Shown: one piece after another, positions 3,001 to 62,481 of the stretch
How positions within the stretch are numbered: the first letter of the stretch is position 1
Layout of the letters: each line of letters opens with the position of its first letter
Program-made: the position numbers and the translations under genes
Notes under the pieces: generated by a model
Database searches by the model: none
What the model saw: the letters and a program-made list of their open reading frames with translations, nothing else
Told to the model about the DNA's origin: nothing
From: a virus
Taxonomy: Duplodnaviria; Caudoviricetes
IMG/VR virus record: IMGVR_UViG_3300033068_001172
Location: 4,935 to 68,934 of that record
DNA: 64,000 bases
Strand: one strand, 5' to 3'

Positions 3001-6000
3001 GCAGTTGCTGCTCGACGAGATGACGGACGAAGCGGCCAAGCTCTCCGGCGTCATCGCCTCCGACCCCGACTCCTTCCAAAACCTCAAGGCCGACGCCAAC
3101 CTCAACATCGACAAGATGGCCGAGGAGGCCGGACGAACCCTGAACATTTTCAACGTGTTCCGCCGTCTGACTCCTGAAGGATTCCTCCGCCGTATGACGC
3201 GTAAGTACAACGACACTGTGCGTGAGAAGGTGGGACAGAATTTTGATGTGCCGGTTGAGAAGGTGGAGAGTGAGATCGCTCTGCTGCGTCGCATGGCGCG
3301 GGAGTCCACGTCGCCGGAACGGCGCAAGGCAATCCTGGCCGCGATCAAAGCTTACAAGCAGCACGACATCGACGCCAAAAAGCTGATCGAGGCCCTGTTC
3401 CCGCAGGCCGGGTTCCGCGCCCGCATGAACAAGGGTGGTGAATCGCTGGTGCGAGACTTCTTCCAGATGATGGCTGGCCCCCGTGATGGCAAAGGCCCGC
3501 TGGCCGAGTTCGACGAGACCATTCAAGGCGCTCTGTCCAGCATGCTGCGCAAAGTGATGGAGGCGCAAGGTCTTGTCGCCAAGAACGCCAGCAACCAGAT
3601 GACCGACATCGACAAGATGGTGCGCGCCGTCAGCGGTGATGAACTGCGCTTCGACAAGATCGCTGCCGCCGATGACGCGATGCAGCAGGAGCTGGCCAAG
3701 ATCCAAGACCCCGAACGCCGCACCACGTTGCAGCAGGCGTGGGAGGAGGCCACGTCCAAGATGTTCACCAACATCGCTTCAGATGCCACCGTGCGCCGCG
3801 CCATCAACGCTGAACTGAAAAGTGCGAACGTCGATTGGACGAAGATGTTCGACACCAACCAGCAGCCGACCGCCATTCGCGGCAGGGTGGTGGACGCCGT
3901 GATGGGTAAAATAGAAGCACTGCTCACCGATCCAACGGACCCGACCGTGAAGCGCAATCTCAGCATGCTGCGCGACGAGGTGTCGAAGGCGTTCGACTTC
4001 ATCTCGGACGTGAAGCACAACCAATGGCTGGCCCAGCGTGAAGCCGTGGAAGCTCGCCGCCGGGTGGCCGAGCACCGTGCCGCGTTCATGGCAGCCTTGC
4101 GCAACCAAGGTGTCGCGGAGCAGACCATCAACCGCATCAGCGAGAAACTGGCAGGACCGCAGCGCGGCAAGCCAGATCAGAACCCCGTGTCCGCTCTCGT
4201 TGGCGAGCACATGAAGGAGGAAGTGCCCGACTTCGTGGACAAGATGGTCGCTCTCGACGTGGACCGCGCCACCGCCGAGAAGCTGGACAAAGCCGCCAGC
4301 ACTCTGCGCACGGAGATCGCCGCTGCCGAGAAGCTCAAAGCCGCTGACCGCGCTGTGGCGGCACTCATGAAGTCTCTCAAGCCGAAGCCCCGCGCTCCTC
4401 GCGAGAAGATCGAGAAGTCTCTCAAAACCCTCTTCACCGCCGACGCTGTGGGCGCGCTCGATGACCAGGCTTTCTTCGATGCGTTCGGCGAAGCTTTTGG
4501 CATGCCACCGCTGAACGGCGAACAGCAGACCAAGATCAAGAAGCTGATTCGCGAAATCAACTCGCTGCCCAAAGGCCCCGCCCGTCTCGACAAGCAGCAG
4601 GACCTCGACGAAGAACTTGCCCTGTGGAAAGGCATCGCCGCCCGTGACGTGCTGCTCTCCGCGTGGTATGCCAACATCCTCTCCGGCGTCTCCACGCAAG
4701 GCATGGGCATGCTGGGCAACCTGCTCAACTTCGTCCCGCGCTCGCTGTTCAACGCCATCGCCAATCCCCGCAGCGCCGGTGCCTACTTCAAAGGTGCGTT
4801 CGGTGAAGGGCTCGCCACCGGCATCGAAGAAGCCAAGGCTGCGCTGAAGGGCCGGGGTCTCTACAAAGTCTCCAAGTATGGGGACAAGAATCTGGTCAGC
4901 GCCTTGGAACTGCTGCGCAAGAAAGGCCCGTCCACGCTGCCCGAGTGGGTGGCCTACATCGCCAGCGGCGGCACCCGTCTCCGCTACGTCTTCCGCATCA
5001 TGCAGGCCATCGACGCCCTGGCGTGGAACACCGCCCGCGAAGGGCATGCTTATCTCGCTGCACACCGTGCGCTGCTTGCGCAGGAGAAGGAGTCCGGCCA
5101 GAAGCGCAGCCCTGAAGAGTTTTACAAGGCGTTCATCGACAGCCTCGGCGGCGACACTGCTCAAATTGAGGAGGACCTGCGCGCCGCCCGCCAGACACTC
5201 ATTGACGCGGGACAGACTCCTGCCCTGCTCACCGTGGACCGCATGGCCCGCGATGCGCGCAACGCCCGTCGTGCGGCTGGTGGCGTCAAAGCAGGCAACC
5301 GTTTTGCTGACCGCATTGTGCTGCAACAGGAACCGGAAGGCTCGGGCAGGTTCATCAGCAGTCTGATCGACGTGTTCCAGAAGAAGGGGAACATCCTTGG
5401 CCTGCCTGTGGGGCAGATGCTGATCCCCTTCAACAAGATCGTCTCCAACCTGTTCGAGCAGTCGCTGGACTACACGCCAGTCGGTGCTCTGCGCGCCTAC
5501 CTCGGCGGCCATCTGTCGGACGTGAAGGGCATCAACAGCAAAGGCCATGCCGAGTTCAAGGAGGGCGCACAGCTTTTCGACCAGATGGAACGTCGCGAGC
5601 GCGCCATGGCCGCCACCGCCGGCATGGCTGCATCCGCCATCATCTACGCACTGGCGCACGCCTACAAGGATGAGCCGGACGAGGACGTGCCGTTCATGGT
5701 GTACGGCTGGGGTCCTGAGAGCAAGAACAAGCGCAGCCAGATGCCCAAGGGCTGGGTGCCCTACTCGATCAAGATGGGCGACCACTACGTCAAGTTTTCA
5801 GAAATGCCCTTCGGCATGATGTTAGCCGCCGCTGGCACTGCGATGGACGCCATGCGCTACAAGAACATGGACAAGAAGACATCCTCCGAGCGTCTGGCCT
5901 ATGTCCTCAAAGCGTCGGCCAAAGGGTTCATGAACCAAGGCGTCATGTCGTCACTCGACACCGCCATGGAGACCATGATGTTCCAGGCCTCCGACAAGAA

Positions 6001-6580
6001 AATTGCCGACATCCCCGTCAACGCCGTCAAAGGCTTCGTGCCTGCACAAGGCCTGCTGCGCGACATCAGCACCATCTTTGACCCGTCGAAGGTGTCCAAC
6101 GAGTCGCTGACCTCTGCCCTGCTGCGCGACATCCCGTTCGCCAAAGGTCTGGCCACCAAACCGGATCTGAACGTGTTTGGCGAACCGATCAAGATGGACG
6201 GCTACCCCATCATTCGCCGCATCGTCACCCACCGCGAGCCGCACGCCGTTGCAGACTATCTCGGCCGCAACGATCTGCACATCCCCGGCATGGAGCAGAC
6301 CATCGAGATTGGCAAGTATCTGCCGAAAGCCGCCCATGACCGCATCCAAAGCCGGGCGCTGGAACTGGGAGCCATGGAGAACGGCCTGTTCACGCCGGAG
6401 CAGAACTATGAGTTCAAGAAGCGTGCGGGCGAACTGACCAAGGCTGCCGTGCAGGACATCATGCGGGAGATCCCGAAGGTTACTGACGACAAGCAGCGCA
6501 AGCATGTGCAGAGCGTCATCGACAAGAGGGTTGAAAATGCACGCAAGCGCGCCATGTTGGAAGCAGTACCATTGAAATGA
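2..6580 (+). CDS. Giant polyvalent internal virion / DNA-ejection protein, 5'-truncated by the window (>2190 aa). Contains a zincin-like HExxH metallopeptidase, an ADP-ribosyltransferase-like module and a long helical C-terminal region
   Basis: The frame of the 239..6580 ORF has no stop from base 2 (PAQGETSTAEIQ...KGLQD-MALHRF), so the true start lies upstream. Motifs: GTLLHEALHHVT...NEEFITGV; LLHHGT...SYIVFNPNQIKSADPITRD..GNVIPLSQRFN; C-terminal GWVPYSIKMGDHYVKFSEMPFG resembling large-polyvalent-protein C-terminal domains. Confidence 0.8.
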   Translation, partial: PAQGETSTAEIQPTQDHAAGTKNIEEGVRAEPAPGDQSREVESPESRDSVLRAEEERAQEVAPKTFRRLTTEETKGLQDMALHRFNVDPEILQRIRDKLGFDISPDQAAAVAVEFVQQARERGEMALIGDALADQPEWAYRDAWKALNPPANINVWAPQINEPAAANINGHTVVGTVGAPLPGGKTNFHYNWNGKPQTATVPVSQLSRPVTALSEAPRYIYTQEQNSRKAGKHIPVTPGVHENFNFRQAFASMAEDKSLSRIYQEIARILSKMPQFTNMDLHIVADGRRPYAGEYTHTNGRSAIAINLRQVARGKVDALGTLLHEALHHVTLAKVRDPQGDVELDAAHALNSIRLKLAKVAGAERFGYELGSNEEFITGVFTHPGFQDFLASLPEDFSPGSHAGKFRSLLSEIFRRIAELVTGKHVAKGSTLEQSMASILALFETPHRVLDLGPLQKLGPVQSRAEGYRSPADLLAETAAKMRGEKSEKPAGLNSMFNPKPGRPATGERTLFETPKKPAINLTTAYQKAQTGRSTAWVPIKDVYEQAKASDPSLTPEAFMAHINEQNDTGGIMVSPVEQVSTVEAARPFVVGAAGVEMLVPEMTPKSEAESNVTPEQDAEYMQAVKDGDVAKQQAMVDAAAKAAGYDKLLHHGTPESTYTPGEWVGGDASNRSKLEEMASRFGINGFDAVASVLERWKESGILSKKGATDEDVANARTWQNQAKSGYQSRGTHALNFNEFEMPSGEQELGTHLGTVEQALNFGEYAHPFFVKLGREVRLADLGTWDYQAVMMALRKKGVKISDAEYEAVYNANDNNQALRELLISKSVNSIVYKNEAEARGDSYIVFNPNQIKSADPITRDADGNVIPLSQRFNPESNSTLYSLAEEQGPPGVTDIGGEAEPADGKGTQLHQKEPTAIGSTYTTPADITLQEKRTQEETLAKARTIIGESIKADGPIKGRRAALDRFRLDTSIPPEVRAAGTGMIAQQSDIMANLETGPQQLLLDEMTDEAAKLSGVIASDPDSFQNLKADANLNIDKMAEEAGRTLNIFNVFRRLTPEGFLRRMTRKYNDTVREKVGQNFDVPVEKVESEIALLRRMARESTSPERRKAILAAIKAYKQHDIDAKKLIEALFPQAGFRARMNKGGESLVRDFFQMMAGPRDGKGPLAEFDETIQGALSSMLRKVMEAQGLVAKNASNQMTDIDKMVRAVSGDELRFDKIAAADDAMQQELAKIQDPERRTTLQQAWEEATSKMFTNIASDATVRRAINAELKSANVDWTKMFDTNQQPTAIRGRVVDAVMGKIEALLTDPTDPTVKRNLSMLRDEVSKAFDFISDVKHNQWLAQREAVEARRRVAEHRAAFMAALRNQGVAEQTINRISEKLAGPQRGKPDQNPVSALVGEHMKEEVPDFVDKMVALDVDRATAEKLDKAASTLRTEIAAAEKLKAADRAVAALMKSLKPKPRAPREKIEKSLKTLFTADAVGALDDQAFFDAFGEAFGMPPLNGEQQTKIKKLIREINSLPKGPARLDKQQDLDEELALWKGIAARDVLLSAWYANILSGVSTQGMGMLGNLLNFVPRSLFNAIANPRSAGAYFKGAFGEGLATGIEEAKAALKGRGLYKVSKYGDKNLVSALELLRKKGPSTLPEWVAYIASGGTRLRYVFRIMQAIDALAWNTAREGHAYLAAHRALLAQEKESGQKRSPEEFYKAFIDSLGGDTAQIEEDLRAARQTLIDAGQTPALLTVDRMARDARNARRAAGGVKAGNRFADRIVLQQEPEGSGRFISSLIDVFQKKGNILGLPVGQMLIPFNKIVSNLFEQSLDYTPVGALRAYLGGHLSDVKGINSKGHAEFKEGAQLFDQMERRERAMAATAGMAASAIIYALAHAYKDEPDEDVPFMVYGWGPESKNKRSQMPKGWVPYSIKMGDHYVKFSEMPFGMMLAAAGTAMDAMRYKNMDKKTSSERLAYVLKASAKGFMNQGVMSSLDTAMETMMFQASDKKIADIPVNAVKGFVPAQGLLRDISTIFDPSKVSNESLTSALLRDIPFAKGLATKPDLNVFGEPIKMDGYPIIRRIVTHREPHAVADYLGRNDLHIPGMEQTIEIGKYLPKAAHDRIQSRALELGAMENGLFTPEQNYEFKKRAGELTKAAVQDIMREIPKVTDDKQRKHVQSVIDKRVENARKRAMLEAVPLK
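51..185 (+). CDS. Small basic protein (44 aa) nested out of frame inside the giant gene
   Basis: Reads MPLEQKTSRKAFVQNLRQEIKAGKSKAQSLAIAYSVQRKNEHKK*. It resembles a common small phage protein pattern (MPL..G.S....S.NI..E.KAGK...QA.AIAYS), and the ATG has the A/C-rich context used by other genes here. Confidence 0.55.
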   Translation: MPLEQKTSRKAFVQNLRQEIKAGKSKAQSLAIAYSVQRKNEHKK

Positions 6581-11441: not shown

Positions 11442-11669
11442 TTATTTCCAAAGTTTCCATTCACTGGACCACGATAAATCTTCAACCGTGGAAGGCCCTG
11501 CCCACCAACCACAATCAAACCAGTGGTGGATACTGCGCAGCAGCAAACATGGCTGCCACAAAATCCAGCAGATGCCTGCCGACAGAATCGCTGGCACCGC
11601 CAAAGTGACCTCGAAAAATATCACGCACAAACGCAATATGTTGACAAAGAAGTTTAGGACAAATCTCAT
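11442..11669 (-). CDS. Small hydrophobic (membrane) protein
   Basis: 75 aa; fills the gap between flanking genes; long hydrophobic N-terminal half. Confidence 0.45.
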   Translation of the reverse strand: MRFVLNFFVNILRLCVIFFEVTLAVPAILSAGICWILWQPCLLLRSIHHWFDCGWWAGPSTVEDLSWSSEWKLWK

Positions 11670-27630: not shown

Positions 27631-28047
27631 TTACTTGGTAAGCTGGTCCTTAAGCGCCTTCACCGCTGCATTGTAGATGTCGGGCAGGTCCTGCTGAACG
27701 ACTTTGCTGTGCGCGATCTCGGGGATGATGACCATCATGGCGATGGTGTTGCTGGACGGCGCTAGCACCGAAACCGCCAGCGAAAAGAGAAATCCGCAAA
27801 GAGTCTTTTTCAGAAAGCGCATCGACGAATCTCGCTGCACCTCCGACTCCTGCATCTCCACCAACCACCCGTCGTTGTTGGATTTTTTGTTTTTTGCTGC
27901 ATACTTGGCGGCATCTGAACTGCTCCCCATATGCACGATAAAGAGAACTAGGGAAACGACTCCGAGAAGAACCGAAATTGTGGCAAATGGTGGGACCAAT
28001 CTGTCCGCCAACTGCCAAAGATATATCGTGAGAGGTGAGATGTTCAT
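27631..28047 (-). CDS. Membrane protein
   Basis: 138 aa with two hydrophobic segments. Confidence 0.65.
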   Translation of the reverse strand: MNISPLTIYLWQLADRLVPPFATISVLLGVVSLVLFIVHMGSSSDAAKYAAKNKKSNNDGWLVEMQESEVQRDSSMRFLKKTLCGFLFSLAVSVLAPSSNTIAMMVIIPEIAHSKVVQQDLPDIYNAAVKALKDQLTK

Positions 28048-46910: not shown

Positions 46911-47182
46911 AACCCACCACATCCGAACCCCCATGCCCCGCCTGCGGCGGCACCCCGGCGTCCCTGATCGAGGACTGCATCTCAACCGACCTCACCCCGT
47001 GGTGGCGCTACTACGCGCAGAAGCTCAATCCGTTCAAGAGGCGGCAGCGGATGGTTCCGGCTGACGACGTGAAACCTTTGGTGATTGCACTGCACCACAT
47101 CGCCAACAGAGGAGGTCAGTACCTCGATGTGGCAGAAAAAGCTTACAACGATTTCATCGCCAAATACCCCACCGTCCCATGA
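46907..47182 (+). CDS. Hypothetical protein
   Basis: MKPTTSEPPCPACGG...; coupled overlaps. Confidence 0.5.
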   Translation: MKPTTSEPPCPACGGTPASLIEDCISTDLTPWWRYYAQKLNPFKRRQRMVPADDVKPLVIALHHIANRGGQYLDVAEKAYNDFIAKYPTVP

Positions 47183-47481
47183 CCACTCTCGACCCCGAAA
47201 ACCTCTACGTCCTGATCGGTATCTGCATCCTGCTGTTCTTCGGCTGGGCCGTCCGTGAACTCTACGTCTCGCTGACCACCACGCACGAGCAGCGTGTCCG
47301 CGTCGAGGCGCAGCGCCGCATCCTGCGCTTCTGCAAAAACCCCACCAGGCGCAACTACATCAGCGCGTGGAACTTCATCGACGACGAGCATGTGCGCCTC
47401 GGCGATCTTGACTGGCCGCTGGTGCAGCGGTTCAGCCGGATGGCGGTGCAGGCCAGCTTCGCACCGGAGGCACGGGGATGA
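47179..47481 (+). CDS. Membrane-anchored protein
   Basis: N-terminal hydrophobic helix LYVLIGICILLFFGWAV. Confidence 0.65.
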   Translation: MTTLDPENLYVLIGICILLFFGWAVRELYVSLTTTHEQRVRVEAQRRILRFCKNPTRRNYISAWNFIDDEHVRLGDLDWPLVQRFSRMAVQASFAPEARG

Positions 47482-48126: not shown

Positions 48127-48207
48127 TTGACCTTATATAGGCTGTATGCCATCATGGATCAATAGTCTATTGCGCCGATGGGCAATGTAGGCTTTTGTCC
48201 CGGCACC

Positions 48208-50517
48208 ATGTCAACTGCCACCACACTCCTCGCCAAGCTCCCCACTGAGAAGTCTCCTCCGGTCCCGGACGTGACGGCATCCACCCGCATCAAACGTGCG
48301 TGCGATGTGGTGGGGCAATACCAGACGCTGTTCAACGAGGACTACATCGCCAGCCGCGACCGCGCCGTGGTGCAGTCCATGGCCGACCGCAACGCCCCGT
48401 ACAGCGACATCATGCTGCGCTCGCTGGGCATCTCCGGCATCACCAACGTCAACTGGGGCGACCTCGGCATTGCCCAGCAGGAGGCCGAGCAGCCGTTCAA
48501 TTCAATCCTCAACTCGATGTCCAACTTCGGCATCGTGCCGTTCAAGAACGGAGCCCTGCCCGACACCGAGGCCGAGGAGAAGGAGGCCATCGTCGCCGAG
48601 GAGTTGCACCGCATGATCATGCGCAACCGTGACTTCCGCTTCAACTGGAAGCTCAAGGCGCACTACTTCACGATGTGGGGTGTGGCCTTCACCTACCGCG
48701 ACGACGAACTCGACTGGCGCTACAAAGTCTCCAGCCTTCAGGACGTGAAGATCCCTCGCGGCACCAAGGCCAGTGTCAACGTGGTGGACCGCATCTTCCT
48801 CAAGGCGGACATGCCGCCCTCCGACCTCTTCAGCAAGATCCAGGACCCCGCGATGGGTAAACTGGCCGGGTGGAACGAGAACGCCATCCGCCGGTCCTGC
48901 ATCAATGCACAGCCCAAGCCGCTCAACACCGCCTCGCCCGAGGAGATGGAGGCGATGTGGAAGGACAACTCGGTTTACAGCGGCAACACCAACGTCGTGG
49001 TGCAAGTGGTCCACGGCTTTGTCAAAGAGGTGGACAACACGGTCAGCCACTACATCGCGGACTACACCCTCAACTCTGACGATGCCGAGTTCCTCTACGA
49101 GAAGAAGGGCAAGTACGCCAGCATGTCGGAGTTCCTCAATGCCTACCTCTTCGGTGTCGGCACCAACGGCGATTTCCACTCGATCCGAGGCAACGCCTTC
49201 AACCTGTTCCCCTCGGCCTCCGCACTCAACAAGCTGCGCTGCAAGCTGGTGGACAAAGCCAACGACGAGGCCAACACCTTCCTCGCGACCGACAACGAGG
49301 ACGCCACCATTGACAACATGATTGTCCCCCGTGGTCCCTACTTCCAGCTCACCACCGGGGTCAACTTTGTTGAGCGCCCCACGCCCCCGGTCGCAGGCAA
49401 TCTGGTGCCAGCCATTCAGGCGATGTCTGACGTGTTCCGCACGCAGTCCTCGGGCATGGCTCCGCGCTCCACCTCCCAAGGTGAGCAGGGGCAGAAGACA
49501 AAGTACGAGCTTCAGCGCAAGGACGAGATGGATTCGACGGGCACCAGTGACACGATGGACATGTTCATCGAGTCGTGGCATTGGGACTACCGCGAGATCG
49601 TGAAGCGCGTCATCAACCCCGAGCTTCAGCCTGAGCACCCCGGCGGCGCGGAGGCATTCGACTTCCGCCTGCGCTGTGAGCAACGGGGAGTTCCCTTTGA
49701 GCTGCTCCGTCAGCTCGACTACGACAACATCAACATCAACACGGGCATCGGTCGTGGCTCATCCGCCGAACGGCGGTCAGTGCTGAGCAACCTGAACGAG
49801 ACCATCTTTGGTCGTCTTGATCCTGAAGGGCAGAACATCCTCACCCGCGACACCATCGCCGCGCAGACCGACTACCGCTATGCGATGCTGCTGGTGCCGC
49901 GTCAGGCTGGTCAACGCCCACCAGTTGATAAACAGATCGCCAACGACGAGAACCAGATTCTCAAGCTGGGCGGCGACGCCGTGGTGGTGCAGAACCAGAA
50001 TCACAGCGTCCACGTCAGCACCCACCTCGAACTGCTGCAAGCCTTTGACGATGCACTGGCGCAGGTGCAAATCGAGTTGAAAGATGCCATCCCGGTGATG
50101 CAGAAAGCCTCGGAGCATTGCAACGAGCACATGAAGTTCATCGACCCTGAGAGCGAGCCCTACCGCCAGTTTAAGCAGGCGCTGCAACAACTCAATGAGG
50201 TCATCACCAACGGCGCGAAACATCTGGAAGCCGACCAGCGCAAGGAGCAGGAAGCCGCTGCCAAGGGCGAAGCGGCACCCGACACCAGCGAAACGCCCCC
50301 CGGCGTGTTCGGCCAGGCGGTGGACGCCCGTGCGCGGCTGGCCATGCAGTCGCAGGAGCACCAGACGGATCAGGAGATCAAGAAACGCGACGCCGATCAG
50401 AAGCTGCTCATCAACGACGCCTTTGCCAAGCAGAAGCTTCAGCATGAGCAGGCCAGGTTTGAGCTTCAGACCTCCCAGCAACAGCAGAAATCAACCCAGC
50501 CCAAACCCACCGCATGA
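48208..50517 (+). CDS. Portal protein
   Basis: About 770 aa; first gene before scaffold and capsid; Gln-rich coiled-coil C-terminus typical of podoviral portals. Confidence 0.75.
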   Translation: MSTATTLLAKLPTEKSPPVPDVTASTRIKRACDVVGQYQTLFNEDYIASRDRAVVQSMADRNAPYSDIMLRSLGISGITNVNWGDLGIAQQEAEQPFNSILNSMSNFGIVPFKNGALPDTEAEEKEAIVAEELHRMIMRNRDFRFNWKLKAHYFTMWGVAFTYRDDELDWRYKVSSLQDVKIPRGTKASVNVVDRIFLKADMPPSDLFSKIQDPAMGKLAGWNENAIRRSCINAQPKPLNTASPEEMEAMWKDNSVYSGNTNVVVQVVHGFVKEVDNTVSHYIADYTLNSDDAEFLYEKKGKYASMSEFLNAYLFGVGTNGDFHSIRGNAFNLFPSASALNKLRCKLVDKANDEANTFLATDNEDATIDNMIVPRGPYFQLTTGVNFVERPTPPVAGNLVPAIQAMSDVFRTQSSGMAPRSTSQGEQGQKTKYELQRKDEMDSTGTSDTMDMFIESWHWDYREIVKRVINPELQPEHPGGAEAFDFRLRCEQRGVPFELLRQLDYDNININTGIGRGSSAERRSVLSNLNETIFGRLDPEGQNILTRDTIAAQTDYRYAMLLVPRQAGQRPPVDKQIANDENQILKLGGDAVVVQNQNHSVHVSTHLELLQAFDDALAQVQIELKDAIPVMQKASEHCNEHMKFIDPESEPYRQFKQALQQLNEVITNGAKHLEADQRKEQEAAAKGEAAPDTSETPPGVFGQAVDARARLAMQSQEHQTDQEIKKRDADQKLLINDAFAKQKLQHEQARFELQTSQQQQKSTQPKPTA

Positions 50518-54590: not shown

Positions 54591-54842
54591 ATGGCTCAGA
54601 TGATTCTCATCCCCCTTCCCAAAGGCTTCGACACCACGCAACACAAGGAGGGGGAGACATTCGACATCCCCGTCACGGTCCATCTGACACCCCAGGGGCT
54701 GGAAGTGGAGGCCGTCGATGGTGTGCCCGTTGAGTCCAACGAGTCTCCACAGGAGGAGGCCGCCGAAACCGACATGGACGAAGAAGGTCTGCAACGCGCC
54801 ATGGGTCGTGGCCAACCACCGATGGAGGAGGGCATGGCATGA
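54591..54842 (+). CDS. Acidic hypothetical protein
   Basis: MAQMILIPLP..., 83 aa. Confidence 0.6.
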   Translation: MAQMILIPLPKGFDTTQHKEGETFDIPVTVHLTPQGLEVEAVDGVPVESNESPQEEAAETDMDEEGLQRAMGRGQPPMEEGMA

Positions 54843-54970
54843 CCGTCACTGACATCACCGGACCCTCCCAAGATGCCGCAGCACTCGCGGTCATCGGGGC
54901 CACCGCCTTCGCCGACACTGAGGTGGGGCTGCTCCAACAACTTCTCGTCGCAGTTGCCAATGCGCCATGA
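54839..54970 (+). CDS. Small protein (43 aa) related to the fibre N-terminal anchor
   Basis: MTVTDITGPSQDAAALAVIGATAFADTEVGLLQQLLVAVANAP; ATGA overlaps on both sides. Confidence 0.6.
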   Translation: MTVTDITGPSQDAAALAVIGATAFADTEVGLLQQLLVAVANAP

Positions 54971-55509
54971 TTCTCTCCACTCTGTACGGCCTCACTCAAG
55001 CCAACGCCGCCCGCGCTCTGATCGGCGGCGACGTTCTTGCTGATACCCGCAACGAACTGCTCAAGCAGTTGGTCGTGGCTGTGGCCAACAAGGCTGGTGG
55101 AGGTGGTGGACTCCCCGCTGGCAGCACGATCACCGACATTATCAATCAGGTGGTCAGCCCGACTGAATATTCAGTTGGTTATCTCGGCATCCCACAGAAC
55201 AGCAAGTCTGCCGACTACACCACAATCCTCACGGATTCAGGTAAGCACATATACCACCCGTCAGCGGACGCAGTTTCTAGAACGTGGACCATTGCAGCCA
55301 ACGCCAGCGTGGCCTACCCCATTGGAACGGCTCTTACTTTCGTCAATGACACTTCTGCGGGTGACATCACCATTGACATCAATGCCGATACCCTGACTCT
55401 CGCCGGTGCAGGCACCACAGGACCTCGAACTCTCGCCGCAAGCGGCATGGCCACGGCGATCAAAGTCACCTCAACCCGCTGGATGATCTCTGGCAGCGGA
55501 CTCACTTGA
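54967..55509 (+). CDS. Short fibre / decoration protein
   Basis: Shared N-terminal anchor, poly-Gly hinge, beta-rich C-terminal domain. Confidence 0.65.
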   Translation: MILSTLYGLTQANAARALIGGDVLADTRNELLKQLVVAVANKAGGGGGLPAGSTITDIINQVVSPTEYSVGYLGIPQNSKSADYTTILTDSGKHIYHPSADAVSRTWTIAANASVAYPIGTALTFVNDTSAGDITIDINADTLTLAGAGTTGPRTLAASGMATAIKVTSTRWMISGSGLT

Positions 55510-57317: not shown

Positions 57318-57806
57318 ATGAAAACGATTGGACTCATACCCTCACTGGCCCTGGCATCCCTTGAGCAGGATGCCAAAAACAATTGGCTCAATGTGCCTGC
57401 GGGCCAGACTGTGGTGCCGCTGGTGAAGATTGAAAAGCCCGTTATTTCCGCAGGCATTGGCTACGAGCCAAAGCTTGTCTGGTTTTCGGATCGAGTCGAA
57501 CGCCAATGGAATCAGATTGTCCCCGTGATTACGGTGCCTGAATCCGTATCCAAGGTGGGAGTGCTTCTCGCGATGGCTGAAAAAGGCCTCTACACCCCTG
57601 ATGATCCAACATCCGCGCTCACTGCCGCAATCGCCAGCATGTCTGACCCTACACAGAAAGCGGCCACGCAGATTTTCTTCCAATTCGAAACAGTTGTGAA
57701 GCGATTCCACCCCGTAGTGCTTGGATTGCAGAAGACCTTGGGGCTGGACGATGCGGCTGTCGATGCCCTGTTTGTGGCGGCGAAAGCGAAGGATAACCAA
57801 CCATGA
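57318..57806 (+). CDS. Putative fibre assembly / accessory protein
   Basis: Follows the fibre gene; C-terminal FQFETVVKRFHP.V...LGLDDAAVDALF.AA pattern. Confidence 0.5.
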   Translation: MKTIGLIPSLALASLEQDAKNNWLNVPAGQTVVPLVKIEKPVISAGIGYEPKLVWFSDRVERQWNQIVPVITVPESVSKVGVLLAMAEKGLYTPDDPTSALTAAIASMSDPTQKAATQIFFQFETVVKRFHPVVLGLQKTLGLDDAAVDALFVAAKAKDNQP

Positions 57807-58777
57807 GTCTCTCCACCCCCTATGGCCTCACACAAGCCAATATCACCCGCGCTCTGATCGGGGGTGATGTGATCGCGGACACACGCAACGAGCTGCTCAA
57901 GCAGTTGATCGTCGCAACCGCCAACAAGACCGGCGGGGGTGGCGGTGGCACAGGTAATGTCGTCGGCCCAGCTTCCTCGACTGACGGCGCTGTGGTGCTG
58001 TGGGATGGCCTCACGGGCAAGCTGCTCAAGGATAGCACGGCGTTCATCACCGGTTCCGGTACTCTCGCGTTCGGGGTTGGTCCGTTCACGCTCACAGTGC
58101 CAGCCACAGGCACGGCGGCGCTCCTCGAAGTTTCCAACATCTTCACATTAGGGCAGACGATTCAGGCTCCGGTGGGCGCTTCGGCGCTGACGCTGACAGG
58201 TGGGACTCAGACGGCCAACTTCCCGGTTCTGGCTGCGACGCAGACGTGGGATAACGCGGCTGTGGCGTTCAGGGGGATTCAGCTCGATGTCACCAATACT
58301 GCAAGCGATGCCGCAAGTCGCATCCTGTATCTACGAGTCAATGGCATCAGTCAGTTCACTGTTTCGGCTGCTGGTGCGCTCAGAATTGGGGATACAACGG
58401 TAGGTGACACACTGAATTTCAGGAGTGACATTGGATTTCTGAACATCAATGGTTTTGGTGGGCAGTCGGGCACAGCTATTGGTGGTGAGACTTATCTGTC
58501 GGGCATCAACTTCGGCAAAAATTCCGGCATACGGTGGACGAATGATGGAACCGCATCGACTCCAGACCTTCTCCTGAGTCGCGATGCCGGTGGAATTATG
58601 TTCCTGTCCGATGCAAATTCAGGCGGAGCCACGCTCCAGATGGCAGAACAGACCGCCCCCGCCGCCCCCGCCGCCAGTCAAGTGCGTATCTATGCCGCGA
58701 ACAATGGCGCAGGGAAAACTCAACTCATGGCCTTGTTCTCCAGCGGGGCCGCACAACAAATCGCAATCCAGCCGTAA
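57803..58777 (+). CDS. Fibre protein with the shared N-terminal anchor
   Basis: First ~45 aa nearly identical to the 54967 protein; beta-rich remainder. Confidence 0.7.
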   Translation: MSLSTPYGLTQANITRALIGGDVIADTRNELLKQLIVATANKTGGGGGGTGNVVGPASSTDGAVVLWDGLTGKLLKDSTAFITGSGTLAFGVGPFTLTVPATGTAALLEVSNIFTLGQTIQAPVGASALTLTGGTQTANFPVLAATQTWDNAAVAFRGIQLDVTNTASDAASRILYLRVNGISQFTVSAAGALRIGDTTVGDTLNFRSDIGFLNINGFGGQSGTAIGGETYLSGINFGKNSGIRWTNDGTASTPDLLLSRDAGGIMFLSDANSGGATLQMAEQTAPAAPAASQVRIYAANNGAGKTQLMALFSSGAAQQIAIQP

Positions 58778-58986
58778 TGAACAAGCCCGACACCACCACC
58801 CAACGCGCCATCATTGAAAATGCGATCAAGTCCATCGAGGCCGAATGCTACTCGCTCACCCTCTCCGGCGAGGCGATGAAGACCATCGGCCTGGTAGAGA
58901 AAGCGACGGAACTTGGCGAGCAACTGGCCAAGTCCATGAAGCTTCACGCTTTCTACACGGTCAAGCTGAACGAACTTCCCCAATGA
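58777..58986 (+). CDS. Small hypothetical protein
   Basis: 69 aa; coupled overlaps. Confidence 0.6.
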   Translation: MNKPDTTTQRAIIENAIKSIEAECYSLTLSGEAMKTIGLVEKATELGEQLAKSMKLHAFYTVKLNELPQ

Positions 58987-59603
58987 TCCTCCCCATGGGA
59001 CCGCCCACCGCCATTCTCACAATGCCAGAAACTCACAAAGCTTTGGGCGTCGATCCCTCCGAATGGAACGCCTGGATCGGTCTTGGAGTCGCCCTCGGCT
59101 CGGGGGCTTTGTGGTTGTGGCGTCACAGTCTGGGAGCACTCTTCATGTGGGGATGGAACTTCGTGCGCGCACCCCTGCTGATCAAGGAGCAGAACGTCCT
59201 GATCCACTCTCTGCTCGAAGAGATGAACAAGGTGAAGCACCAAGCTGAATACGCCGTGGCCATGTCCCGCGTTTCGTGGTCCTTCGTGGAGCGCCCTGTG
59301 CTGCAATGCGACGCTCTCGGTCTATGCGTCTTTGCCAATGACTTTTCCGTGCGCCTGCTGGTGCGCCAGCAGGACGAGTTCTGCGGCTCCGGCTGGCTGA
59401 CTCTGGTACATTCGGAGGATGCCGAGCGGGTGGAGCGGCTGTGGCGGCAGTGTGTTGCCGACAAGCGCAACTTCGCCCACACCTTTCGTCTGGTGGATCG
59501 CAGTGGAAGATCCACCCGTGTTTTTGACCGGGCCGAGATCCTGTATGACCGTGACAACGTCGTGCTCGGGTGGTATCATCTGATGTCGGTCGCCGACTCC
59601 TGA
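58983..59603 (+). CDS. Transmembrane + PAS-domain protein at the holin position
   Basis: Hydrophobic WIGLGVALGSGALWLW, short coiled coil, then DALGLCVFAN...EFCGSGWLTLVHSEDAERV...F.HTFRL...G...V...A....D (PAS/PAC pattern). Confidence 0.75.
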   Translation: MILPMGPPTAILTMPETHKALGVDPSEWNAWIGLGVALGSGALWLWRHSLGALFMWGWNFVRAPLLIKEQNVLIHSLLEEMNKVKHQAEYAVAMSRVSWSFVERPVLQCDALGLCVFANDFSVRLLVRQQDEFCGSGWLTLVHSEDAERVERLWRQCVADKRNFAHTFRLVDRSGRSTRVFDRAEILYDRDNVVLGWYHLMSVADS

Positions 59604-59604
59604 C

Positions 59605-60579
59605 ATGAAAAAACCCCCCGTCATCATTGCCATCAACGGCATCCGCACCAAGCAGATTTACTCTGCGTGGCCACGCCGGTTCGACTGGTGGCTCGATGCC
59701 AACCTCGACGAGATCGCGGTGGCCGAACGCTACGAATATGAGTGCTCGGCGTTGTTCAGGTTCAAGGGCCAGCGCGCCCGAGTCGATGAACTGATCGAAA
59801 TCGTCAACGGCTATAAGAACAACGATCAGGACATCATCTTGGTGGGGCACAGCAACGGCTGCGACATCATCCAGCGGATACTCAACATGGGTATCCACGT
59901 CAGGGAGGTCCACTGCTTCGCCCCTGCCGCGTTCGAGGCTGACTTCTCCCGCGCTATCGAGCGCAAGGCCTGCAAGCGCATCTTCATCTACGGCAGCACC
60001 AATGACCGGGCTCTGCGTCTGGCCCGCGACACGCAGTTCCTCACCCGCACACTGTCTTTTCTGCTGCGCCCCTTTGGAGTGCCCCAGCTTGGGTACGGCT
60101 GGCTTGGGCTCAACGCCGCAGCGTTCGCTGCCCAGCACCCGGACATCGTTACTGATTGCAGCAACAACCGCTTCGACCACAGTACTTGGTTCGAGGAACA
60201 GTATTTTGACAGCACCATGCTCTTGTTCGAGGCCAACTACACGTCAAAACAAGGGTTGGCTCCCGTCTCTCCCCCACCTATTCTCGTACCGCCCACTCCA
60301 ACAACCGATATGAAAACAACCCTCCTCTCCCTCCTCGCCCTCTGTCTCGTCTCCTGCGCAAACGGACCATTGACCAAACAGCAGGCCGCTGCTGACGCCC
60401 TCTCTGTCGCCGCTGCCGCCGCCAATGGCTTCCTCGCTGGTGGAAAGGCAGGCGCGCTCCTCGGCCTCACCACGCAAGAAGTCGCTAACCTCAGTGCCCT
60501 GGCTGCCAAAGCCAAGGTCACGGCCAATGCGACTTCGCCAGCCCCGGCACCCGTTCCAGCAGCACCCCCTGTGAAGTAA
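59605..60579 (+). CDS. Alpha/beta-hydrolase (lipase/esterase-like) fused in frame to a lipoprotein-like C-terminal part
   Basis: ILVGHSNG nucleophile elbow, NDRAL, FDHSTWF; Pro-rich linker; then MKTTLLSLLALCLVSC. Confidence 0.7.
   Translation: MKKPPVIIAINGIRTKQIYSAWPRRFDWWLDANLDEIAVAERYEYECSALFRFKGQRARVDELIEIVNGYKNNDQDIILVGHSNGCDIIQRILNMGIHVREVHCFAPAAFEADFSRAIERKACKRIFIYGSTNDRALRLARDTQFLTRTLSFLLRPFGVPQLGYGWLGLNAAAFAAQHPDIVTDCSNNRFDHSTWFEEQYFDSTMLLFEANYTSKQGLAPVSPPPILVPPTPTTDMKTTLLSLLALCLVSCANGPLTKQQAAADALSVAAAAANGFLAGGKAGALLGLTTQEVANLSALAAKAKVTANATSPAPAPVPAAPPVK
60310..60579 (+). CDS. Putative lipoprotein from an internal in-frame start
   Basis: MKTTLLSLLALCLVS-C (type II signal peptide with lipobox); ATG preceded by A/C-rich sequence. 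Confidence 0.6.
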   Translation: MKTTLLSLLALCLVSCANGPLTKQQAAADALSVAAAAANGFLAGGKAGALLGLTTQEVANLSALAAKAKVTANATSPAPAPVPAAPPVK

Positions 60580-60586
60580 TATTGCC

Positions 60587-61168
60587 ATGCACGCCTACAA
60601 AGCACTTCTTGCTCCAGTGAGCAACCGGGGTCGTCCTCCGGTTGCGTTCTTGGACGCGCTGGTGTCGTGGCTGCGCACTGCACCCGAAGACATCTTCGCG
60701 TCCAACAAGGACCCCGAGGATGTGTTCAACCGGCTGGCCCCGCTGCTGGGTCCGTGGAACTCCCCTCTGCACCGTCGCGCCGCCATGGGCGAACTGCTGC
60801 GCTGCCTGGCAGGTTTTGAAAGTTCATGGCGCTGGAACTGCGGGGTGGACACCACCAACAAGACCAGCATGCGCCTCATCACCGGGCAGGAGACGGGCAT
60901 TTTTCAAGTGTCGTGGGATTCACTCGGCCTCGATCTGGCAGGCACGGACGACGTGGACGACCTGCATCAGTGCGTGCTGCGCTACTGTGGCAGTCTGAAG
61001 GTGCAGACCTTTATCAGCCTGATGAAGTCCAACCACCTTTTTGCCCTTGAGTACTGCGCACGTCTGCTGCGAAACTCATTTTTCTGGGATGGTCCGATCA
61101 AGCGGCACGAAATTGACTCCTCCCTCACCCGCGAAGGCGTGGAAGAACTTCAACAGCTCCTCACCTAA
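60587..61168 (+). CDS. Putative lysozyme-fold endolysin (transglycosylase-like)
   Basis: LAGFESSW (catalytic Glu-Ser pattern) and ETGIFQVS (GxxQ pattern). Confidence 0.6.
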   Translation: MHAYKALLAPVSNRGRPPVAFLDALVSWLRTAPEDIFASNKDPEDVFNRLAPLLGPWNSPLHRRAAMGELLRCLAGFESSWRWNCGVDTTNKTSMRLITGQETGIFQVSWDSLGLDLAGTDDVDDLHQCVLRYCGSLKVQTFISLMKSNHLFALEYCARLLRNSFFWDGPIKRHEIDSSLTREGVEELQQLLT

Positions 61169-61174
61169 ACCATC

Positions 61175-61627
61175 ATGGCCAAGAACCTCTACCTCATCCG
61201 CCTAGACGGCACCTACGCCCGCTATACAGGCATTGTTTCGGACCCTGTGCTTACTCCATTGGCCGCCGATCCATTGGCCCCCGATCCGGGGGCCATGCAA
61301 GGCATGGGCGAGCCCTACCGCGACATTCCGGTCTGCGGCACCACGCTCAGTGAAGACTCGGTCTCCGTGCAGTCCAACACGGGAGTGACCTTCACCGCCC
61401 CCGCATTCATCTCCTCCATTCCCGGCCCGGCAGGATTCTCCGGCACCTTGGGCATCGTGGAGCCGGATGATGTAGCGCACGTCGCGCCACGCCAAGCCGT
61501 TCAGACTTACACGTTCTGGAAATTCGATTTTGGGGTAGTGGCGGGCTCGCCTCAATACGCCTACGCCGAGTTTCGCCGTGGCGACATCATCGCGGACACC
61601 GCGCCAAACACCGATCCAGCAGTCTGA
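61175..61627 (+). CDS. Hypothetical structural protein
   Basis: 150 aa in the late operon. Confidence 0.6.
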   Translation: MAKNLYLIRLDGTYARYTGIVSDPVLTPLAADPLAPDPGAMQGMGEPYRDIPVCGTTLSEDSVSVQSNTGVTFTAPAFISSIPGPAGFSGTLGIVEPDDVAHVAPRQAVQTYTFWKFDFGVVAGSPQYAYAEFRRGDIIADTAPNTDPAV

Positions 61628-62481
61628 TGTCCTCGTTCAAACCATCGAACCCGCCGAAGTCTCAAGCCACTCCGTCCAAACGGGATGAGGGGCATTACTT
61701 TGGCATGGTGCCCACGCCGAACCCTCGCGAGATGGCGTTCATCGTGAAGGAGACGGCGGCCACGTTCAACCCGGAGCAGGTGCCTGAGGTCGGCACCGCC
61801 TACAAGGACAGCGCCTTCTTGAAGGTGAGGCCGCGCATTCAGTTGCAGGGATTCGAGGACTATCAACTTTTGAACGTCGGACGCGATGGCGACTACCTGT
61901 GGTTCAAGTATGGCAAGAACAAGGTGCAGAGCGATCAAGGTACCAAGTTCCGCACCTACTTCACTAACCGCCGCTTCACGTGGCCGGCGGTGCTGGAGGA
62001 TTTGTATGTGGTGCAGACCAGCCAGTTCGTGCAGGCTGTGTTCGACGGCAGCACCACTCAGACCGAGCCTAGCTATTTCCCACGCTACACTTTTCGCCCC
62101 GCTGCCTCGGTCAGCTCGGTGGTCATGATCGAGCAGTTCCTGTCCCCCGTCGAATGGTCCAAGGCTGATGTGACGCACCGCCAGCCTATCCCCACCAGCG
62201 TCCATGCGAGCTGGGTGGGTCTGGAGTTTGACTTCCAAGAGTGCTTGCACCCCGACATCGTCATTCCTGAAAAAGTGCCCGGCGCAAAGGTGGTGCCCGG
62301 CGTTGGCGTGCTGGCGTCTCCCACGGCGCGCAACCTCCAGCGGAAGTTCATCCCGCAGACCAACTTCACTGATTGGGCTCCGTTCATTTACGACGATGCC
62401 GTTGAGCCCACTGACGGGTTCTGGCTGCGCGAACGCGTCACCTACTTTCCACCGATTCGTCCACCCGACGTTTACACATGA
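61627..62481 (+). CDS. Hypothetical structural protein
   Basis: 284 aa, beta-rich, late operon. Confidence 0.65.
   Translation: MSSFKPSNPPKSQATPSKRDEGHYFGMVPTPNPREMAFIVKETAATFNPEQVPEVGTAYKDSAFLKVRPRIQLQGFEDYQLLNVGRDGDYLWFKYGKNKVQSDQGTKFRTYFTNRRFTWPAVLEDLYVVQTSQFVQAVFDGSTTQTEPSYFPRYTFRPAASVSSVVMIEQFLSPVEWSKADVTHRQPIPTSVHASWVGLEFDFQECLHPDIVIPEKVPGAKVVPGVGVLASPTARNLQRKFIPQTNFTDWAPFIYDDAVEPTDGFWLRERVTYFPPIRPPDVYT

Follow-up and report, generated by a model that had tools for sequence, protein, structure and literature searches.

We describe a stand-alone PAS protein, probably anchored in the cytoplasmic membrane, that is encoded at 58983..59603 (+) of a 64,000-nucleotide stretch (the window) of IMG/VR virus record IMGVR_UViG_3300033068_001172 (positions 4,935 to 68,934), and we ask what it may do in the lysis cassette that follows it. 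The window is the final 64 kb of a 68,934-bp viral contig that was judged complete and has a G+C content of 58%. A replication block (DNA polymerase, primase, helicase, exonuclease and methyltransferases) lies on the minus strand and a late block with fibre-like genes lies on the plus strand; the PAS gene is placed in the structural/lysis part of the late block, after the tail-fibre genes. The reading frame is open and encodes 206 residues (P0001), confirming that the open reading frame (ORF) noticed in a preliminary description of this DNA is real. Its ATG overlaps the stop codon of the upstream ORF (ATGA), and the next ORF begins two bases past its own stop codon. Met14 is an alternative start, used by some homologues. 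The upstream ORF (58777..58986, +) encodes a small helical protein of 69 residues with no Pfam or PHROG match; in most relatives a small soluble ORF of 55-112 residues, poorly conserved in sequence, likewise precedes the PAS gene.

The protein begins with an N-terminal tail (residues 1-28; 58983..59066, +) that is disordered in the model, ends in a conserved acidic DPxEWN motif and is, by prediction, external to the cytoplasmic membrane. It is followed by a hydrophobic helix (residues 29-46; 59067..59120, +), Ala/Gly/Trp-rich and a putative single span of marginal hydrophobicity; by a basic, Trp-rich juxtamembrane segment (residues 47-63, WRHSLGAF..W.WNF..A; 59121..59171, +) with invariant R47, S49, G51, W56 and N59; by a helical stalk (residues 64-104; 59172..59294, +); and by the PAS fold (residues 105-203; 59295..59591, +), after which come three residues and the stop codon. 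A sensor histidine kinase was rejected because the protein ends at this point and has no DHp or catalytic domain.

The PAS fold was identified with Pfam, a family alignment, a structural model and a fold search. Pfam PAS_3 (PF08447) matches residues 126-197 with an E-value of 1.4e-10 (41.7 bits, against a gathering cut-off of 25.6), Pfam PAS (PF00989) spans residues 105-197, and the family profile matches ARNT PAS-A in the PDB (E-value 3e-5). PHROGs has no family for the protein. An AlphaFold2 model built with 27 homologues (mean predicted local distance difference test score, pLDDT, 79.5) shows residues 1-20 disordered, one unbroken helix over residues 25-100 and a PAS fold at residues 106-203, with the usual helices and five antiparallel strands (106-110, 115-118, 164-171, 177-188 and 194-203). 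Foldseek matched this model to ARNT PAS-B, LOV and hERG PAS structures with TM-scores of 0.70-0.79 on the target. Taken together, the domain matches, the five-stranded model and the fold matches indicate that the PAS fold is complete and that no output domain follows it. The preliminary description had read the protein as a membrane-spanning helix, a short coiled coil and a complete PAS domain without an output domain, and had proposed an AlphaFold model as a check. The last element is borne out by Pfam, AlphaFold2 and Foldseek, and the model returned both the complete PAS fold and the continuous helix 25-100 in which the coiled coil lies. The membrane-spanning helix is a reasonable inference rather than a certainty: the uncharged span at residues 29-46 is conserved, but its hydrophobicity is marginal.

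The conserved PAS residues are those of the usual PAS_3 scaffold. A LOV photoreceptor was rejected, as the Cys motif GxNCRFLQ of helix E is absent and the aligned segment reads GSGW(L/R/Q)TL(V/I)H in 27 out of 27 sequences. An Aer-type site for flavin adenine dinucleotide was also rejected, as the protein has no Arg like that of the RHPDMP motif.

Residues 29-46 form a highly conserved stretch of 17-18 uncharged residues (A 24%, G 18%, W 17%, L 14%) that is likely, judging from sequence, to insert into the membrane. The Ala and Gly content resembles that of signal-anchor-release (SAR) domains, which are weakly hydrophobic N-terminal spans with much Gly, Ala and Ser and are able to exit the membrane, but SAR domains are oriented with the N-terminus inside and are found on endolysins or pinholins. 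The 15 residues before the helix, which end in DPxEWN, are acidic on average (net -1.0 to -1.25), and the 15 residues after it are basic (WR/K...; net +1.3 to +2.4); the C-terminal flank is the more positive in 26 out of 27 close and 16 out of 16 distant sequences. By the positive-inside rule this bias predicts an N-out/C-in topology, which puts both the stalk and the PAS domain on the cytoplasmic side. The predicted placement agrees with the character of the Pfam family PAS_3, whose members are sensors located in the cytoplasm. The juxtamembrane stretch (WRHSLGAF..W.WNF..AP.LI) matches the PAS core in conservation, which argues that the N-terminal part has a role beyond anchoring.

Topology bears directly on one alternative, namely that the protein is the inner-membrane subunit of a spanin and pairs with the lipoprotein encoded downstream. 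An N-terminal helix leading into a long coiled coil would suit such a subunit, and a lipoprotein gene does lie downstream in most loci. But a spanin subunit needs an N-in/C-out orientation with a periplasmic coiled coil, the flank charges are opposite to this in 42 out of 43 sequences, the PAS_3 type is cytoplasmic, and the lipoprotein gene is not always adjacent. The spanin subunit was ruled out on predicted topology, and we give this explanation hardly any credence.

A two-copy model of the protein scored 0.44, against 0.02 for the best of three controls, and passes a mark that was reached by 20 out of 30 proteins solved as same-chain pairs and by one out of 23 solved as single chains. The two-copy runs share at least 56% of their contacts, with a pLDDT of at least 77 for the partner, and the interface consists of a parallel coiled coil over residues 63-104 together with the PAS sheet, so that the coiled coil of the preliminary description reappears here as a pair of parallel helices. 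This pass may partly reflect solved PAS dimers, and it shows likeness to known pairs, not binding.

Homologues of the PAS protein are numerous but narrowly distributed in length. A word-indexed search gave 31 homologue clusters of about 200 residues, all metagenomic, with 51-75% identity. An exhaustive profile search of 1.84 billion representatives gave full-length matches (24-36% identity) solely in proteins of about 180-260 residues, and there are at least 14 such distant homologues (alignment A3). With long bacterial kinases, the match is confined to the PAS part. The N-terminal 105 residues were not found in proteins of 362-2000 residues, which is weak evidence. The nearest ESM Atlas clusters (50-1142 members) are 100% viral, and a search of the family alignment against 185,579 representative prokaryote genomes found no relative. 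By these sequence matches the protein belongs to a phage-only family of about 180-260 residues. No match to it, or to the capsid-like protein of the same phage, was found by tblastn among 50,697 phage records.

The genes downstream of the PAS gene are those of a lysis cassette. The first encodes an alpha/beta-hydrolase-like protein with a GHSNG nucleophile elbow (59605..60309, +), which has weak Pfam matches and is 68% identical to the product of a separate 225-residue gene in a related phage (locus L004). It is followed, in frame and with no stop codon between, by a lipoprotein with an LVSC lipobox (60310..60579, +), 74% identical to the product of a separate 103-residue gene in L004; the single ORF 59605-60579 thus comprises 225 hydrolase residues and 89 lipoprotein residues that belong to two genes in L004. 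In-frame lipoproteins of this kind are found at window 59605-60579, L002 10644-11168 and L024 6635-7099, and the gene preceding the lipoprotein is the hydrolase in the window and a holin-like segment with two membrane spans in L002/L009 and L024. Next comes a 193-residue endolysin (60587..61168, +), which has no Pfam match and carries no signal or SAR sequence. A search of PDB sequences with the alpha/beta-hydrolase and the lysozyme-like protein gave nothing, and a fold search alone named the lysozyme: the endolysin model (pLDDT 89.6) matched Bdellovibrio DslA (VIA; Z-score 9.2, root-mean-square deviation 3.8, 148 aligned residues), then Bombyx lysozyme (Z-score 8.0) and then about 40 muramidases, lytic transglycosylases and phage endolysins. 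The modelled protein thus has a lysozyme-superfamily fold. Glu78, in the motif GFESSW, is invariant; the protein has 526 relatives, some of them fused to PG_binding_1. Two conserved genes of 150 and 284 residues (61175..62481, +) mark the 3' boundary of the variable cassette in relatives and are followed by a collagen-like fibre gene.

We examined 16 loci that have a homologue and enough downstream sequence (the window, L002, L004-L007, L013, L020-L027 and L029). Pattern scans of viral contigs and metagenomes yielded few loci, and most contexts came from look-ups of exact proteins. In all 16 the PAS gene is preceded by fibre-like genes and by a small soluble ORF, and in 12 a peptidoglycan hydrolase is encoded within about 2.5 kb downstream, in homologues down to 25-30% identity. 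The hydrolase is lysozyme-like in the window and L020, a CHAP protein in L006, L021, L022 and L026, a Peptidase_M15_4 protein in L005, L007, L013, L023 and L024, and in L029 a 182-residue protein judged to be lysozyme-like by motif alone. Between the PAS gene and the hydrolase gene there is usually an enzyme that acts on lipids or amides, together with lipobox lipoproteins, one or two per locus; some relatives also have downstream ORFs of 32-36 residues with one membrane span. The distant loci (L024-L027 and L029; 25-35% identity) differ otherwise in gene order. These neighbourhoods support the view that the PAS gene heads a genuine lysis cassette and that the link is conserved. The hydrolase, lipoprotein and endolysin-like genes named in the preliminary description were found as described, and the survey of gene neighbourhoods upholds its placement of the PAS gene in a lysis cassette, including in relatives of 25-35% identity. 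The cassette hydrolases of the window and its relatives carry no export signal or SAR sequence, so a hole-former in the cytoplasmic membrane is needed.

A conserved protein of 150-153 residues (starting with MWPFKSKPK and containing WECEDQARA, H.YVWAI and DPT, with a possible Cys-His-Asp triad) is found in relatives' cassettes (e.g. L013 1004-1465, L006 8633-9094, L030 3913-4365, and others), is absent from the window and has no Pfam, PHROG or NCBIfam match. ORFs of 32-41 residues with one membrane span abut or overlap the endolysin start in L004 (9932-10033), L006 (9579-9689), L021 (8121-8219), L026 (7016-7120) and L034 (4873-4998); these would be unusually small holins.

The slot directly after the PAS gene alternates among the alpha/beta-hydrolase (GHSNG; window 59605-60309), DUF1353 and Peptidase_C92 (an amidase with the permuted papain fold); examples of this alternation in relatives are L022 7638-8090, L026 6534-7019 and L034 3156-3665. 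DUF1353 is a family with experimentally shown phospholipase A2 activity (TtaP; PMC11525133). The alternating slot suggests that lysis includes a lipolytic step, which may assist spanins or stand in for them. An enzyme so placed also raises the explanation that the PAS protein is a membrane anchor, inhibitor or activator of the next-encoded enzyme and restrains a lipid-active enzyme until the end of infection. In 10 out of 16 loci the next gene is indeed an alpha/beta-hydrolase, DUF1353 or C92 gene, whose start overlaps the PAS stop codon or lies at most three bases away. But the type of enzyme varies while the PAS protein is conserved, DUF1353 is present without a PAS gene in L028 and L030, and another gene intervenes in L005, L007, L023, L024 and L027; we regard this explanation as improbable.

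A position inside the tail-gene block, with the conserved 150- and 284-residue genes and the collagen-like fibre gene coming after the cassette, would also suit a virion or ejection protein, whose helix would be soluble in the particle and insert at infection while the hydrolases serve entry; a marginally hydrophobic helix fits this too. Such a role is quite improbable, as host processing is required for the lipobox lipoproteins and the tiny membrane ORFs, which suit lysis rather than virions, as the small, free-standing hydrolases are exchanged between types in the manner of endolysins, and as a PAS_3-type domain points to the cytoplasm.

Relatives without the PAS gene, which were found through the conserved 284-residue gene and through the lysozyme-like gene, are informative about the position itself. 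In L034, a contig binned with a Prosthecobacter metagenome-assembled genome (MAG) and carrying an endolysin 80% identical to that of the window, the same slot holds a 136-residue protein with several membrane spans. In L030 it holds a 103-residue protein with an N-terminal span and a coiled coil (with a hint of XhlA below the threshold), and in L028 a 99-residue protein with a coiled coil and a C-terminal span. Within 5 kb of the lysozyme-like gene, no PAS homologue was found in any of 80 genomic copies. The presence of other membrane proteins at the same position supports reading it as the slot for a membrane protein of the lysis cassette, and this is the best support for the term 'holin slot' used in the preliminary description.

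From the cassette and its slot, we put at about an even chance that the PAS protein is a lysis-timing membrane protein, either a hole-former or the partner of one. That it is a partner or regulator of a separate holin is a tentative reading, and that it forms the hole itself is an unlikely one. We are similarly doubtful of the most specific version, a hole-forming holin gated by a ligand or by redox state through its cytoplasmic PAS domain. We infer insertion, topology, dimerisation, a role in the hole or its timing, and any ligand, in the following scheme. Once inserted, the protein would expose its short acidic N-terminal tail on the outside and keep the stalk and PAS domain in the cytoplasm, and two copies would pair in parallel by way of the stalk and the PAS sheet. 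The helix, rich in small residues, and the Trp-rich juxtamembrane segment would join in or control a membrane hole, which would admit the lysozyme (60587-61168), itself devoid of a signal, and the lipolytic enzyme encoded nearby to the envelope. The PAS domain would couple the hole step to a cytoplasmic cue (metabolite, redox or energy state), the signal travelling along the stalk towards the membrane helix, opposite to its course in sensor kinases.

Several observations weigh against a role in lysis timing. The helix is weak by simple scales: over 19 residues, family members reach Kyte-Doolittle maxima of about 1.0-1.7, and a crude, position-independent sum on the Hessa scale is +3 to +7 kcal/mol. 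No cofactor signature is evident in the PAS protein, and it matches none of the holin, antiholin and spanin families in Pfam, PHROGs, NCBIfam and PADLOC. Because the phages behind the 16 loci are related to one another, the synteny counts do not amount to 16 separate events. In PHROGs the DUF1353 family carries the label 'tail assembly chaperone', which may be a misnomer, and the cassette is enclosed by the block of tail genes. Other membrane proteins also compete for the role. The PAS protein is the sole non-lipoprotein membrane protein in eight out of 16 cassettes, including that of the window, but another such ORF is present in seven: the two-span segments running in frame into the lipoprotein in L002/L009 (the closest relative, where the two-span ORF is directly downstream of the PAS gene) and L024, the tiny one-span ORFs in L004, L006, L021 and L026, and a 71-residue ORF in L027.

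Outside the cassette, one competitor is a conserved 100-residue protein (47179..47481, +) with a holin-like charge pattern, that is, an acidic N-terminal tail, one strong membrane-spanning helix and a basic C-terminal tail; it is 61% identical to an L002 ORF and lies upstream of a 779-residue late gene (48178-50517). From its sequence features, it is plausibly a holin encoded away from the cassette. A 138-residue ORF with two membrane spans in the replication block (27631..28047, -) matches phrog_3878, of unknown function; a further membrane ORF lies at 11442..11669 (-). No further membrane ORF is present in the 5.2 kb with which the contig begins, outside the window, and when the small membrane ORFs of relatives were compared with the window by tblastn, no credible copy was found. 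The preliminary description had recognised no other holin candidate nearby, which holds inside the cassette of the window, with other membrane ORFs elsewhere in the genome. Its reading of the PAS protein as a holin or antiholin stands in part: the conserved position in a lysis cassette and the membrane proteins of PAS-less relatives are for it, and the lack of a holin family match, the weak helix and the other membrane ORFs are against it.

Two further points against lysis timing are also points for a different explanation, in which the protein is a late membrane sensor unrelated to lysis (acting in superinfection exclusion, as a modulator of host physiology, or as a partner or 'kinase mimic' of host PAS proteins). 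One is that four out of 16 loci have no hydrolase nearby; the other is that the slot in L032 (3277-3810) holds a 177-residue PAS protein that lacks the N-terminal helix, has its PAS domain at the N-terminus and ends in a weakly hydrophobic tail. In addition, junctions of tail-fibre and lysis genes are typical sites of accessory genes, as in lambdoid and T-odd phages, and the PAS domain is closest to the PAS repeats of long bacterial multi-PAS kinases. But the helix-plus-stalk module is found in no protein longer than about 260 residues, so there is nothing specific to be mimicked, and no homologue was found in the representative prokaryote genomes. The PAS gene keeps its place down to 25% identity, when accessory genes are usually sporadic, and other membrane proteins occupy the slot when it is absent. 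It is also tightly packed in the late block (with the start overlap and the two-base gap to the next ORF), and PADLOC gives no match. We consider a sensor unrelated to lysis rather unlikely. The dominant-negative mimic of host sensor kinases, which the preliminary description had offered beside the holin, finds no support, given that the N-terminal module is confined to proteins of about 180-260 residues, that kinases match the PAS part alone and that the gene is in the late block.

The lysis-timing membrane protein that we favour can be compared with a few known systems. The nearest in plan is LysF1b of F1-cluster mycobacteriophages (Girr gp35 and NormanBulbieJr gp33), a 124-residue protein with a 22-residue outer tail, one membrane-spanning domain in N-out/C-in orientation, basic residues after it, and a helical, highly charged cytoplasmic tail with no folded domain; it is needed for efficient lysis, and energy poisons trigger it early (PMC13056207). 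The PAS protein resembles it in its short outer N-terminal tail (about 28 residues versus 22), single N-terminal span, basic residues after the span and helical cytoplasmic part, and in a gene tightly packed in the lysis cassette, with its start overlapping the preceding stop. It differs in a much less hydrophobic helix and in the added PAS fold of 100 residues; the likeness is one of architecture, and the group is not defined by sequence. The hosts differ too (Mycobacterium, versus probably a diderm verrucomicrobium here), and a lysis role was tested experimentally for LysF1b alone. By analogy, the PAS protein may be a LysF1b-type plan with a sensor added.

The class III holin T of phage T4, which works with the antiholins RI and RIII, is oriented with its N-terminus inside and has a periplasmic domain (PMC11413866, PMC8385771). 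It resembles the PAS protein in length (about 210 residues) and in combining a single membrane helix with a large, folded, soluble domain, which in T regulates lysis timing; the PAS protein differs in its opposite predicted topology, its PAS fold and the absence of a match to Pfam Phage_holin_T. Full-length Foldseek matches to two annotated T-type holins (E-values 0.011 and 0.067) are not significant. The sensor modules of membrane histidine kinases and Aer-type receptors, which join a membrane anchor to a signalling helix and a cytoplasmic PAS domain, share the PAS_3-type fold, the parallel stalk and the predicted dimer, but the PAS protein has no DHp, catalytic, HAMP or other output domain and its family is virus-only. 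BFVD contains other small, uncharacterised PAS proteins of this kind, e.g. UniProt A0A6J5NY05 and A0A6J5QVN9 (both 'PAS domain [uncultured Caudovirales phage]'), which have the same size and helix-plus-PAS plan (full-length Foldseek E-values 3e-10 and 5e-9) at about 21% identity to the PAS protein. No PAS-containing lysis protein of a phage came up in the literature searches, and we found no paper reporting lysis timing through a PAS sensor in any studied phage.

The host of this uncultured phage is probably a member of the Verrucomicrobiota. This lead comes from the endolysin (60587-61168), which is 80%, 70% and 66% identical to proteins of contigs binned as Prosthecobacter, Spartobacteria and Akkermansiaceae MAGs, respectively (L034-L036); copies at less than 51% identity are scattered across many Gram-negative phyla. 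Elsewhere in the genome, a single ORF of about 2,700 residues crosses the window start (from G000:C1:3406 to window position 6580); its counterparts in relatives have 3,374-4,954 residues, one of them with a ResIII helicase match. Several fibre-like genes share an N-terminal motif, ALIGG....NELLKQ.VVA.AN..GGGG (window 54839-54970, 54967-55509 and 57803-58777; L002 11169-13049), which looks like an attachment module for interchangeable fibres. A scan for promoters and terminators gave a result at chance level.

Known controls of lysis timing are holin concentration and membrane potential, together with superinfection signals that act through antiholins in T4-like and a few other phages. A lysis-cassette membrane protein that bears a PAS domain would bring in a new kind of input, in that a metabolite, oxygen, redox or energy state would delay or hasten lysis. 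The lipolytic-enzyme slot and the in-frame nested lipoproteins suggest, in addition, a route of outer-membrane disruption unlike classical spanins. A membrane helix, a stalk and a PAS domain would also make a small natural module for ligand-controlled lysis switches. The PAS family is large, confined to viruses and found in freshwater metagenomes, and if the sensor-gated holin is true, the moment of lysis would be tied to the metabolic state of the host in a class shared by thousands of uncultured phages; an effect on burst timing would bear on carbon turnover through the phages of abundant uncultured bacteria, e.g. Verrucomicrobia.

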